Below are positions 2,977 through 7,728 of a stretch of DNA of 7,854 nucleotides, one piece after another. Both the position numbers and the translations under genes were made by a program. The notes under the pieces are model-generated. The model did not search any database. It was not told the DNA's origin and was given only the letters and a program-made list of their open reading frames with translations. Position 1 is the first letter of the stretch; every line of letters begins with the position of its first letter. The DNA is from Octopus sinensis (lineage: Eukaryota): assembly GCF_006345805.1 (NCBI RefSeq), contig NW_021828721.1, positions 1 to 7,854 of the forward strand, written 5' to 3'.

Positions 2977-3010
<34 letters not shown>

Positions 3011-3219
3011 ATACGTTTGTGTGTCTGTGTTTGTTCCCACCAACATCGCTTGAAACCGATGCTAGTGTGTTTACGTCCACGTAACTTAGCGGTTTGGCAA
3101 AAAGACCCCAATAGAATAAGTACTAGGCTTACAAAGAATAAGTCCTGGGGTCGATTTTCCTGACTAAATGCGGTGCTCCAGCACGGCCGCAGTAAATGAC
3201 TGAAACAAGTAAAAGAATA
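2977..3219 (+). mobile_element. SINE family A, 5'-truncated (starts in internal (GT)n)
   Basis: (GT)n at 2981-3009, then TTTGTGTGTCTGTGTTTG...CGTAACTTAGCGG...AGAATAAGTACTAGGCTT...CTGGGGTCGATT...GCGGTGCTCCAGCACGGCCGCAGTAAATGACTGAAACAAGTAAAAGAATA. Confidence 0.92.
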
Positions 3220-5583: not shown

Positions 5584-5660
5584 GCAATAATAATTCTCTA
5601 AATGAGATATAGACAGTAACTGCTCCATATCATAAGGGACTAAAGCCATCTGAATATGGC

Positions 5661-5693
5661 TATATATATATACATATATATATATATACATAT
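5661..5693. repeat. (AT)n microsatellite
   Basis: Visible run abutting the LINE fragment. Confidence 0.9.
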
Positions 5694-5694
5694 G

Positions 5695-6191
5695 TTATTC
5701 GCCTGGGAAGATTTTGGCATTTATAGGCAGTGACTAGGTGACTGGCTGGTTTCCTGAAGTTAGTATTGCAAATCATAAGGTCATTTACATCGCAGAACTC
5801 CAGCAGCCTGTTTCCCTCCTCATTGCGGGAACCAAAACCATAGCCTCTAAGTACGCCATGGAAGCCTCCTGCATGTTGCCCAATATGTCCATTGAAGGCA
5901 CCAGCCACAAAGAGTAGGTCCCTGTCATTCATCAACGAGGTAATCTGCAAGATGGTGTCATAAAATCGGTGTTTCTGTCCCTCAGGTAACCCCGGCTGAG
6001 CGGGATAGGCCGAGATAATGGTTGCTAACCCACGATGAAGCACTAATCTAATCTTAAGTATTCTGTCTCATACTCTGACTACCTCGATTACCTTATCAAC
6101 CCATTTCTTCGCAGTTCCCTGCCCAGAAAATCTTGTACCTGTGTTCTTTGCCTTTGAGAAACCTAGCGGAACCTTCTCTCCACCTTACTTG
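5695..6191 (-). pseudogene. decayed non-LTR retrotransposon (RTE-like) AP-endonuclease (EEP) domain fragment
   Basis: Minus-strand translation gives QVRWREGSARFLKGKEHRYKIFWAGN / AKKWVDKVIEVVRV*DRILKIRLVL...IISAYPAQ...FVAGAFNGHIG...GYGFGSRNEEGNRLLEFC...LMICNTNFRKPASHLVT / INAKIFPGE. These are typical RTE EN motifs (SAYAPQ, GDFNGH, RNxEGxRLLEFC). The copy has a TGA stop at 6068-6070, a D>A change in GDFN, and frameshifting deletions near 6113 and 5728. Confidence 0.9.
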
Positions 6192-6302
6192 TTATATTTC
6201 GGAATGGTCATATAGCCAGTTTAGCCAAGAAAAACACACGCACTATATATATTTCAACACACAACTTCACATAAAAAATCTTGCACAACAAATATTTAAA
6301 CG

Positions 6303-6406: not shown

Positions 6407-6439
6407 CAAGGGTGAGACAAAATTTCAAACAAATTTATT

Positions 6440-7123
6440 TTGATATGGGGTAGGACTGCTTTGGCAGTAATTACAGCTTGAATTGTACGAGGTATGGACT
6501 CGTACAAAGTTTGAATTGTTTCCAAAGAAATTTTTGTCCATTCTTCAGCTAAAACAGTCTCCAGTTCTTGTAGTGATGATGGTGGAGGTTATCGACTCCT
6601 TACTTGTTTTTTTCTAAATGCACCATAAATGTTCAAGAATATTGCTATCTGTGGACTGTGGTTGCTAGATAAGATGTTCGACGTCACTAAAATGTTCCTC
6701 GTACGATTCAGTAACAACTTTAGCCGTGTGAAATGCTGGATTATCATACTGAAAGATTGCGTTTACCTCCGGAAACAGTTCCGCAACCATAGCATGAATT
6801 TGATCAGTTAAAATACTTAAATAGCCTTAACTATTAAATCTGCGATGAAGGGAAACCATTGGGCCGGCGGATTTGCAAGATATAGTCCCCCTCCTCCGCC
6901 CCAGATCATCATAGATCGTCCACCATGTTTAAGAGTTGGAAGAAGGCAGTCTGGGTCAAATGCTTCTTTTGTCTGTCTCCGCATATATACTCAGCCGGTG
7001 GTTGGAAAAAAGGTAAACGGATGACTCGTCCGAGAAAATAACATTCCATCACTGCTGTGGGGTTTTACCCAACTCTTGTTTTTTCTTTTCGTTTTCCCGT
7101 GTTTCGTCAAATTAAGCTGCAGA

Positions 7124-7166
<43 letters not shown>

Positions 7167-7541
7167 CGTCAATTCCTTTGAAACGATTGTTTTTAAAATA
7201 GTGGTTTTCTGATAGCAGCTCTCCCGTGAAATCCGGCTTTGTGCAGCTCCCGGCGAACAGCTTTTGCGGAAACTAGGTTCTTGAGGTGTACTTGGGAGCT
7301 GTACTTTCGTGATACTTTCTAACAATTCGCTTAAGGTTCCGACGGTCCCTATCTGAAAGTTTTGGTTTTCTTCCGGAGTTTTGTTTCGACGAGGAGGATT
7401 TTTTACCCTCTTTCTCAAAAGATATTACTTTCGAGACAGTACTTCTTGATGCACCAAACATTTCGGCTGTTTTCGTTACGCTAGCGCCTGCCATACGAGC
7501 ACCAACAACTTGACCTCTTTGAAGTTCGATAGATCTGTCAT
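6440..7541 (-). pseudogene. Tc1-like transposase pseudogene
   Basis: ATG at 7541 (MTDLS...RGQVVGARMAGASVTKTAEMFGASRSTVSKV, HTH), then SGRKPKLSDRDRR and TVRRELHKAGFHGRAAIRKP. Catalytic motifs are VIFSDES (D at 7028-7030), FQYDN (D at 6743-6745) and QSTDSNILEHLW (E at 6632-6634), with KHGG between the two aspartates. The C-terminus reads LYESIPRTIQAVITAK. There are multiple stops and frameshifts, and a minus-strand AATAAA at 6434-6439. Confidence 0.92.
7091..7166 (-). pseudogene. 76-nt 18S rRNA fragment inserted in the transposase
   Basis: Minus strand reads GAAACTTAAAGGAATTGACGGAAGGGCACCACCAGGAGTGGAGTCTGCAGCTTAATTTGACGAAACACGGGAAAAC. The conserved eukaryotic 18S is GAAACTTAAAGGAATTGACGGAAGGGCACCACCAGGAGTGGAGCCTGCGGCTTAATTTGACTCAACACGGGAAAAC, giving 4 differences. 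Confidence 0.93.
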
Positions 7542-7728
7542 TTTAATGAATTTTAACTACCTTTTTGTGATATCTGAAAAGAAACAGTAATTTTAGTAAG
7601 ACTTATTCAGCAGCACTAATAATAAATTTAAAAAAACATAAAAATAAACAAGTTTTGACGGTTTTACAGATATTTCAGAATTACGATGCTATAATGCTAG
7701 GAGTTTCCAGTATTTCGTCCGACCGCTG

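Follow-up and report, generated by a model that had tools for sequence, protein, structure and literature searches.

A copy-specific 18S rRNA fragment inserted in a dead Tc1/mariner-type transposon of Octopus sinensis, with a target-site deletion and no target-site duplication

Introduction

The dispersal of rDNA and the retrocopying of rRNA are both in print (PMC5381670, PMC5322556, PMC4994717; review PMC10946416; here and below, as far as the accessible text of each source goes). Non-classical L1 insertions show target deletions at 18 of 21 loci, and co-opted cellular RNA fragments are reported among them, in the available sections of Sen et al. (2007, PMC1920257). Tailless retropseudogenes, which were selected for target-site duplications (TSDs) and 3' complementarity to the target, include two 5'-truncated 18S and ten 28S copies in the accessible part of Noll et al. 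(2015, PMC5322556). SINE28 and other tailed LSU fragments carry an rRNA piece with an A-rich 3' stretch and are sometimes nested in a transposon; SINE28 itself, in the portion of Longo et al. (2015, PMC4994717) that is available, derives from the 28S 3' end and is multi-copy, TSD-flanked and Pol III-transcribed. Dispersed rDNA pseudogenes, as described in the accessible text of Robicheau et al. (2017, PMC5381670), lie far from the arrays and decay neutrally; some of them are whole units that contain spacer and originated as DNA. The available portions of PMC5035012 and bioRxiv 10.1101/2025.02.02.635956 contain no 18S precedent.

The locus analysed here lies in a stretch of Octopus sinensis DNA, hereafter the window, which is an entire unplaced contig of 7854 nt (NW_021828721.1) in an assembly of 2.72 Gb and 13,516 contigs (GCF_006345805.1). 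It shares with non-classical L1 insertions the absence of a TSD, a target-site deletion, filler DNA and microhomology, and differs from them in that it carries nothing but rRNA and lacks LINE sequence, in an invertebrate genome and with a putative enzyme. Like the tailless retropseudogenes, it consists of an internal rRNA fragment with an A-rich end from what looks like a one-off retroposition; those copies are recognised by a TSD and 2-18 nt of complementarity at the RNA 3' end, whereas here a deletion is found and 15 nt of filler lie between the 18S sequence and the target. It differs from SINE28 in being a single internal 18S piece without a TSD, and from the whole dispersed rDNA units, with which it shares its rDNA-derived sequence, in comprising 76 nt with scars of synthesis at both ends.

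Host element

The element that carries the insertion is represented in the window by the following features.

6407..7728, minus strand: dead copy of a Tc1/mariner-type DNA transposon, with TA on both sides and with frameshifts and stops
6407..6418, minus strand: remnant of the 3' terminal inverted repeat (TIR), about 19 nt of which has been lost internally, by comparison with six sister copies

The N-terminal piece of this copy matches Pfam HTH_23 and HTH_28, with HTH_Tnp_Tc3_2 below the cut-off, and its own DDE pieces gave no match in the Pfam scan; in sister copies DDE_3 and HTH_Tnp_Tc3_2 are both above the cut-offs. The family is large, with 3536 candidates at the first search, of which 40 copies were scored. 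TA flanks, TIRs, and HTH and DDE domains (the DDE_3 match being on a sister copy) place it in the Tc1/mariner class, and the spacing from the second D to the E is 36 residues in the family majority. This spacing, together with TA flanks, short TIRs beginning with CAG and the two domains, resembles that of DD36E Tc1/mariner elements, a likeness drawn from these features rather than from a tree; the window copy is unlike them in being dead and damaged in its 3' TIR. Presumably, the family name Incomer applies to elements with this spacing. Because of the damaged TIR, the window copy is likely immobile. Its substitution from the family majority is 7.2%, within the 4.9-9.6% observed in 27 other copies.

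Anatomy of the insertion

Of the 39 other scored copies, 29 were aligned across the insert site, and these paralogous copies were used to infer the empty, pre-insertion state. The site is essentially continuous in 28 of them, and one carries unrelated sequence. The window copy exhibits the following features.

7076..7175, minus strand: 100-nt insertion in place of 6 nt of the transposase gene, without a TSD (alignment with 29 other copies)
7176..7179, minus strand: 4-nt microhomology, AAAG, common to the Tc1 left flank and the 18S sequence (sequence comparison)
7164..7179, minus strand: first copy of a 16-nt 18S stretch, the second being at 7159-7144 (sequence and comparison with host rDNA)
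7091..7166, minus strand (sense): 76-nt 18S fragment, from the start of helix 28 through helix 31, 72/76 identical to host rDNA
7104..7105, minus strand: adjacent double transversion, 7105 being the sole U of the helix-31 loop (Rfam structure line)
7076..7090, minus strand: A-rich filler of 15 nt, 12 of them A, absent from the 29 other Tc1 copies

The 18S identity of the main piece, already proposed in the preliminary description, is borne out by a match to Rfam SSU_rRNA_eukarya (E 8.7e-14, scan of 7000-7250) as well as by the alignment to host rDNA, for which a long host-type rDNA copy served as reference; the SSU match is absent from the list of the Rfam E-value scan of the whole window. The name helix 28 for the start of the fragment is our own assignment. 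The fragment has no indels and four differences from host rDNA, at 7123, 7118 (a CpG), 7105 and 7104.

The 5' side of the insert is more complex than a simple junction. The two copies of the 16-nt stretch lie 20 nt apart, so that 9 nt of repeated 18S precede the 76-nt match; where the sequence jumps back to begin the main piece, the two parts overlap by 3 nt (GAA). The 18S piece had been described as following the transposase directly, which these 9 nt contradict. An insert at 7076..7179 had likewise been proposed; it stands as 7175-7076, the last four positions (7179-7176) being the AAAG that the Tc1 end and the 18S have in common. On the 3' side, Tc1 sequence continues in register after the A-rich stretch. 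No duplicated bases occur at either junction in the alignment to the 29 Tc1 copies, in agreement with the missing TSD reported before, and six bases present in other copies are gone, i.e. the target site has suffered a deletion. The earlier account of 18S sequence, A-rich stretch and missing TSD was thus correct, and it overlooked the deletion, the microhomology and the 5' repeat.

A target deletion without a TSD argues against canonical target-primed insertion by a LINE and for break repair, with which the AAAG microhomology, the 9-nt repeat and the 15-nt filler also agree. The preliminary description had left both routes open, and the second is preferred. We regard it as very improbable that an 18S decay product with an oligo(A) tail was retrocopied by the canonical LINE route and then lost its TSD through a small deletion. 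The A-rich stretch does lie 3' of the sense strand, tailed human 18S fragments are documented (11/55 18S ESTs heteropolymeric; PMC1474067, accessible text), and one 28S fragment of the same genome, L191, took this very route. Against these points, the junctions show a clean 6-nt loss with no duplicated bases, so that an extra deletion event is required, and in L191 itself the tail consists of A only and the TSD is perfect. In addition, the target offers no T-rich primer and at most 1 nt of pairing at the empty site, although the need for such a primer is a rule of L1 type that may not fit the LINEs of this animal. An R8-type by-product of 18S targeting finds no support, as no R2-clade sequence is joined to the fragment and both flanks are Tc1.

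Copy specificity and authenticity

Neither 18S sequence nor the A-rich stretch is present at the site in any of the 29 other Tc1 copies, and among the 40 copies scored of 49 candidates, the window alone matches across both junctions. The exact gapped pattern of the right junction occurs once in the 2.72-Gb assembly. Since this junction is single and none of the 29 copies carries the insert, the 18S insert is copy-specific and has not been amplified by the transposon. An amplified Tc1-18S composite transposon was rejected on the same single junction and on the internal deletion of the 3' TIR. The nesting of an 18S fragment in a Tc1-type element is confirmed in the assembled sequence, and the alignment to other transposon copies suggested in the preliminary description has defined the breakpoints.

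The insert differs from rDNA by 5.3%, and the host Tc1 copy from its family majority by 7.2%; judged by these distances, the insert is no older than its host. Conservation of the 18S segment is too strong for its sequence to prove that it came from the host. A second, divergent 18S type of the assembly is disfavoured as the source, with an 88% match compared with 95% for the host type.

We consider it improbable that the insert arose as an error of the reads or of the assembly on this short, unplaced contig. Such an origin would suit a window that makes up the whole contig and whose unique flank has no second copy. The best public run contains a share of 0.31 of the element's words, compared with 0.17-0.30 in runs of other organisms. 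For a repeat of such high copy number these shares say little, and since rare variants of a repeat are lost from run contigs, a low share is weak evidence for an artefact. The window copy also has the most indel events of 28 copies (20 vs 2-16, with L045 and L049 left out of the table), whereas its one-base indels (7.5 per kb; family 0.9-9.0) and its substitutions are within the family range. Moreover, similar short fragments are found on chromosomes of the same assembly, Tc1 resumes in register after the 6-nt loss, the 18S piece is free of indels, and its CpG-type change also occurs in other genomic copies. The in-register Tc1, the indel-free 18S and the change of CpG type speak for an insertion that is genuine and has aged.

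The A-rich stretch

The preliminary description had regarded this stretch as an oligo(A) tail foreign to the transposon. It is indeed foreign, since its absence from 29/29 other copies rejects an origin within Tc1. Its status as a tail is less secure: the 15-mer begins with G, three of its 15 bases are not A, and it can also be read as a repetition of the last bases of the 18S fragment. If a pure tail had undergone simple decay, at least three changes would be expected with P 0.04-0.18, and A-tails mutate faster than average. Among 20,000 shuffles, 2.1% begin with GAAAA and contain it twice, a post hoc count. Templating of the filler from the left flank was rejected, as the 8 nt that match it fall short of significance (13% of shuffles; 303/1132 Tc1 positions).

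In the accessible text of PMC1474067, tails of poly(A) or of poly(A)-rich sequence are described on fragments of human 18S, 11 of 55 18S ESTs being heteropolymeric. We lean slightly to slippage as the origin of the filler, because the 5' end of the insert clearly stutters; it has somewhat better than an even chance, and a true heteropolymeric tail somewhat less than one. In another 18S fragment, L026 (G000:C2:202448425 region), the last 18S base is the same as in the window and is followed by AAAC repeats.

Dispersed rDNA in the genome

The genome contains dozens of dispersed rDNA pieces. Among the matches listed, at least 40 for each query, 42 host-type 18S and 48 28S loci were examined around two test sites; these loci range from about 40 nt to many kb and have scattered ends. 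Some long loci reach ITS1, 28S or spacer-like subrepeats over 9 kb upstream, which indicates dispersal at the DNA level. Multi-kilobase pieces, some with spacer-like tandem subrepeats, are found on chromosomes C2, C3, C17, C18 and C19 (L092-L101).

Other loci bear the marks of retrotransposition. L191:545-704 (G000:C2, from 39006100) comprises a 28S fragment of about 117 nt, ten non-templated A and a 17-nt TSD, the start of which is repeated over 9 nt at the 5' side. By its sequence, it is a clean tailed rRNA retrocopy, and as such it shows that the route put forward in the preliminary description exists in this genome. L082 (G000:C28:10474610 region) and L090 (G000:C18:15939606 region) are 18S fragments of 189 and 147 nt with TSDs of 15 and 11 nt, respectively, and no tail; they resemble tailless retropseudogenes and fit that class better than the window insert does. 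On the evidence of the spacer-bearing long loci and the TSD-marked L082, L090 and L191, both DNA-level dispersal and retrotransposition operate in the genome.

No other one of the 42 host-type 18S loci among the matches listed has both ends of the window's 18S piece, L026 having the 3' end. An 18S-derived SINE family was rejected, since the fragment ends are scattered. A seeming cluster of 3' ends in ITS1 was discounted, as the Rfam end coordinate is early and the ends lie inside 18S.

Six unplaced contigs (C8702, C8694, C1618, C8851, C8223 and C7755; L028-L030, L175-L177) carry the second, AT-rich 18S type, with a GC content of 43% vs 64% and 73-83% identity to the host type. This type probably stems from a parasite or from contamination of the assembly. 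The 5' boundary and the sequence upstream of it are the same in five 28S pieces (L107, L112, L121, L123 and L124), a pattern suggestive of a duplicated rearranged rDNA unit.

Template of the 18S fragment

The change at 7105 is a T>G at the position that we take to carry m1acp3-pseudouridine in this animal, and its neighbour at 7104 is a C>A. The corresponding helix-31 U is position 1248 of human 18S and is modified across eukaryotes, and reverse transcriptases (RTs) stall and misincorporate there, to an extent that depends on the enzyme (21% for TGIRT, over 50% for MarathonRT in Mn), according to the accessible text of bioRxiv 10.1101/840132, PMC8336963 and PMC10245971. With MMLV RT and Sanger reads, one study found no mismatch at the site (PMC8336963, available part). 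The misincorporation data in these sources leave the neighbouring C>A unexplained.

In the other host-type 18S copies (the window being left out), a transversion at the helix-31 U was found in 3/36 (L017, L088 and L170), compared with a background of 1.1-1.3% (P 0.007-0.011); sites that reach this level are 2/140 and 5/350. Among short 18S fragments the count is 2/16 (P 0.04). All three changed copies were retrieved by a query that begins downstream of the modified site. Duplicate hits, from the same place or from duplicated scaffolds, and the divergent 18S type were dropped before the counts, as were L080, which is on the same contig as L017 and also changed at this U, and L174, a host-type copy that keeps the T and would bring the count to 3/37. 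The chance that one of the insert's changes falls on the helix-31 U is estimated at about 5%, for a site picked after looking.

The 28S control gave no excess: at the position that we assign to m1A from its motif, 2/41 copies are changed, compared with 3.3% (P 0.39). Since RTs stop at modified bases, a pile-up of 5' ends just after them would be expected, and none was seen after the helix-31 U or the 28S m1A in the 42 18S and 48 28S loci among the matches listed. Some fragments end close to these bases, in small numbers that are subject to query-edge bias. The 3' ends of three 28S pieces (L178, L180 and L163) lie near m1A; two of them end exactly one base before it, and one piece has an A>T at m1A and extends 5 nt beyond it. 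In two pieces of 18S (L024 and L165), the 3' end is 0-3 nt past the helix-31 U.

The main alternative is that the fragment was copied from rDNA, i.e. from a DNA template, during microhomology-mediated end joining, in the manner of a nuclear insertion of organelle DNA. The end repeats would then be slippage and the double transversion ordinary decay or error. Polymerase-theta joining produces microhomology, deletion and repeated synthesis, all of which are present here, and a DNA template would account for each feature of the junctions just as well. Many dispersed copies in this genome run into ITS1 or bear spacer-like subrepeats, the T is kept in 33 of the 36 other 18S copies, and the 28S control is flat. 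DNA-level dispersal of rDNA is, moreover, documented (PMC5381670, accessible text). Against a DNA template, two of the four differences lie at and beside the segment's one pairing-blocking modification, with a modest excess of changes there in other copies, and the 8-nt flank match of the filler is not significant. Overall, we regard a DNA template as a serious minority possibility. The T>G at 7105 is the only RNA-specific clue, and with it the RNA origin proposed in the preliminary description gains some support, tempered by the 28S control. On these substitutions, we moderately favour an RNA template for the insert.

Other features of the window

Between 3380 and 4830 of the window, a SINE-like repeat of 150-215 nt is present six to seven times, dispersed or in tandem, with three copies at a spacing of 181-182 nt. 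Several further repeat copies, presumably of a tRNA-like SINE family, are located at 60-170, 1130-1620, 2290-2630 and 3010-3210, beside TA and TG microsatellites. A decayed reading frame on the minus strand at 5660-6200 appears, from its motifs, to resemble a LINE endonuclease domain; the part at 5663-6064 gave no Pfam match at E 0.1.

Mechanism and significance

The origin that we prefer for the insert, with confidence only a little above even, is an endonuclease-independent, microhomology-primed capture of reverse-transcribed 18S, the RNA being likely that of mature ribosomes. A break would have occurred in the transposase gene of an already dead Tc1 copy, with the loss of 6 nt. A poorly processive polymerase, either the RT of a LINE working independently of the LINE endonuclease or an enzyme like polymerase theta, would have begun at the 3' end of the 18S fragment and stuttered there, leaving the A-rich filler. 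It would have misread the m1acp3-pseudouridine 14 nt in and continued to the 5' end of the fragment. The other broken end could then have paired via AAAG and been extended by 12 nt, with a slip back to GAA before the join was closed; the 16-nt copy at 7164..7179 would be the trace of this first, abortive round. No function is apparent for the product.

The class of the insert is ordinary, because dozens of rDNA pieces are dispersed over the genome, some TSD-flanked and one an A-tailed 28S copy, and such pieces are already in print. As one rRNA-derived scrap in a dead transposon, the single locus matters little. It does provide a tidy invertebrate example of break-associated capture, in which both ends bear scars of synthesis.

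The useful lead lies in the substitutions at pairing-blocking rRNA modifications, which could mark the RNA or DNA origin of short rDNA pieces, a question that junction anatomy cannot settle. Our literature search, in which subscription journals were poorly covered, found no paper that uses such substitutions as a marker on genomic rRNA copies. It is conceivable, as a tentative proposal that we rate well below even, that the T>G here and the three other 18S transversions are germline RT errors at m1acp3-pseudouridine, so that the rRNA fragments dispersed in animal genomes would constitute a fossil record of RNA chemistry. If this is true, such changes would distinguish rDNA-like pieces derived from mature ribosomes from those derived from DNA, and rRNA modifications would be readable from genome assemblies alone.
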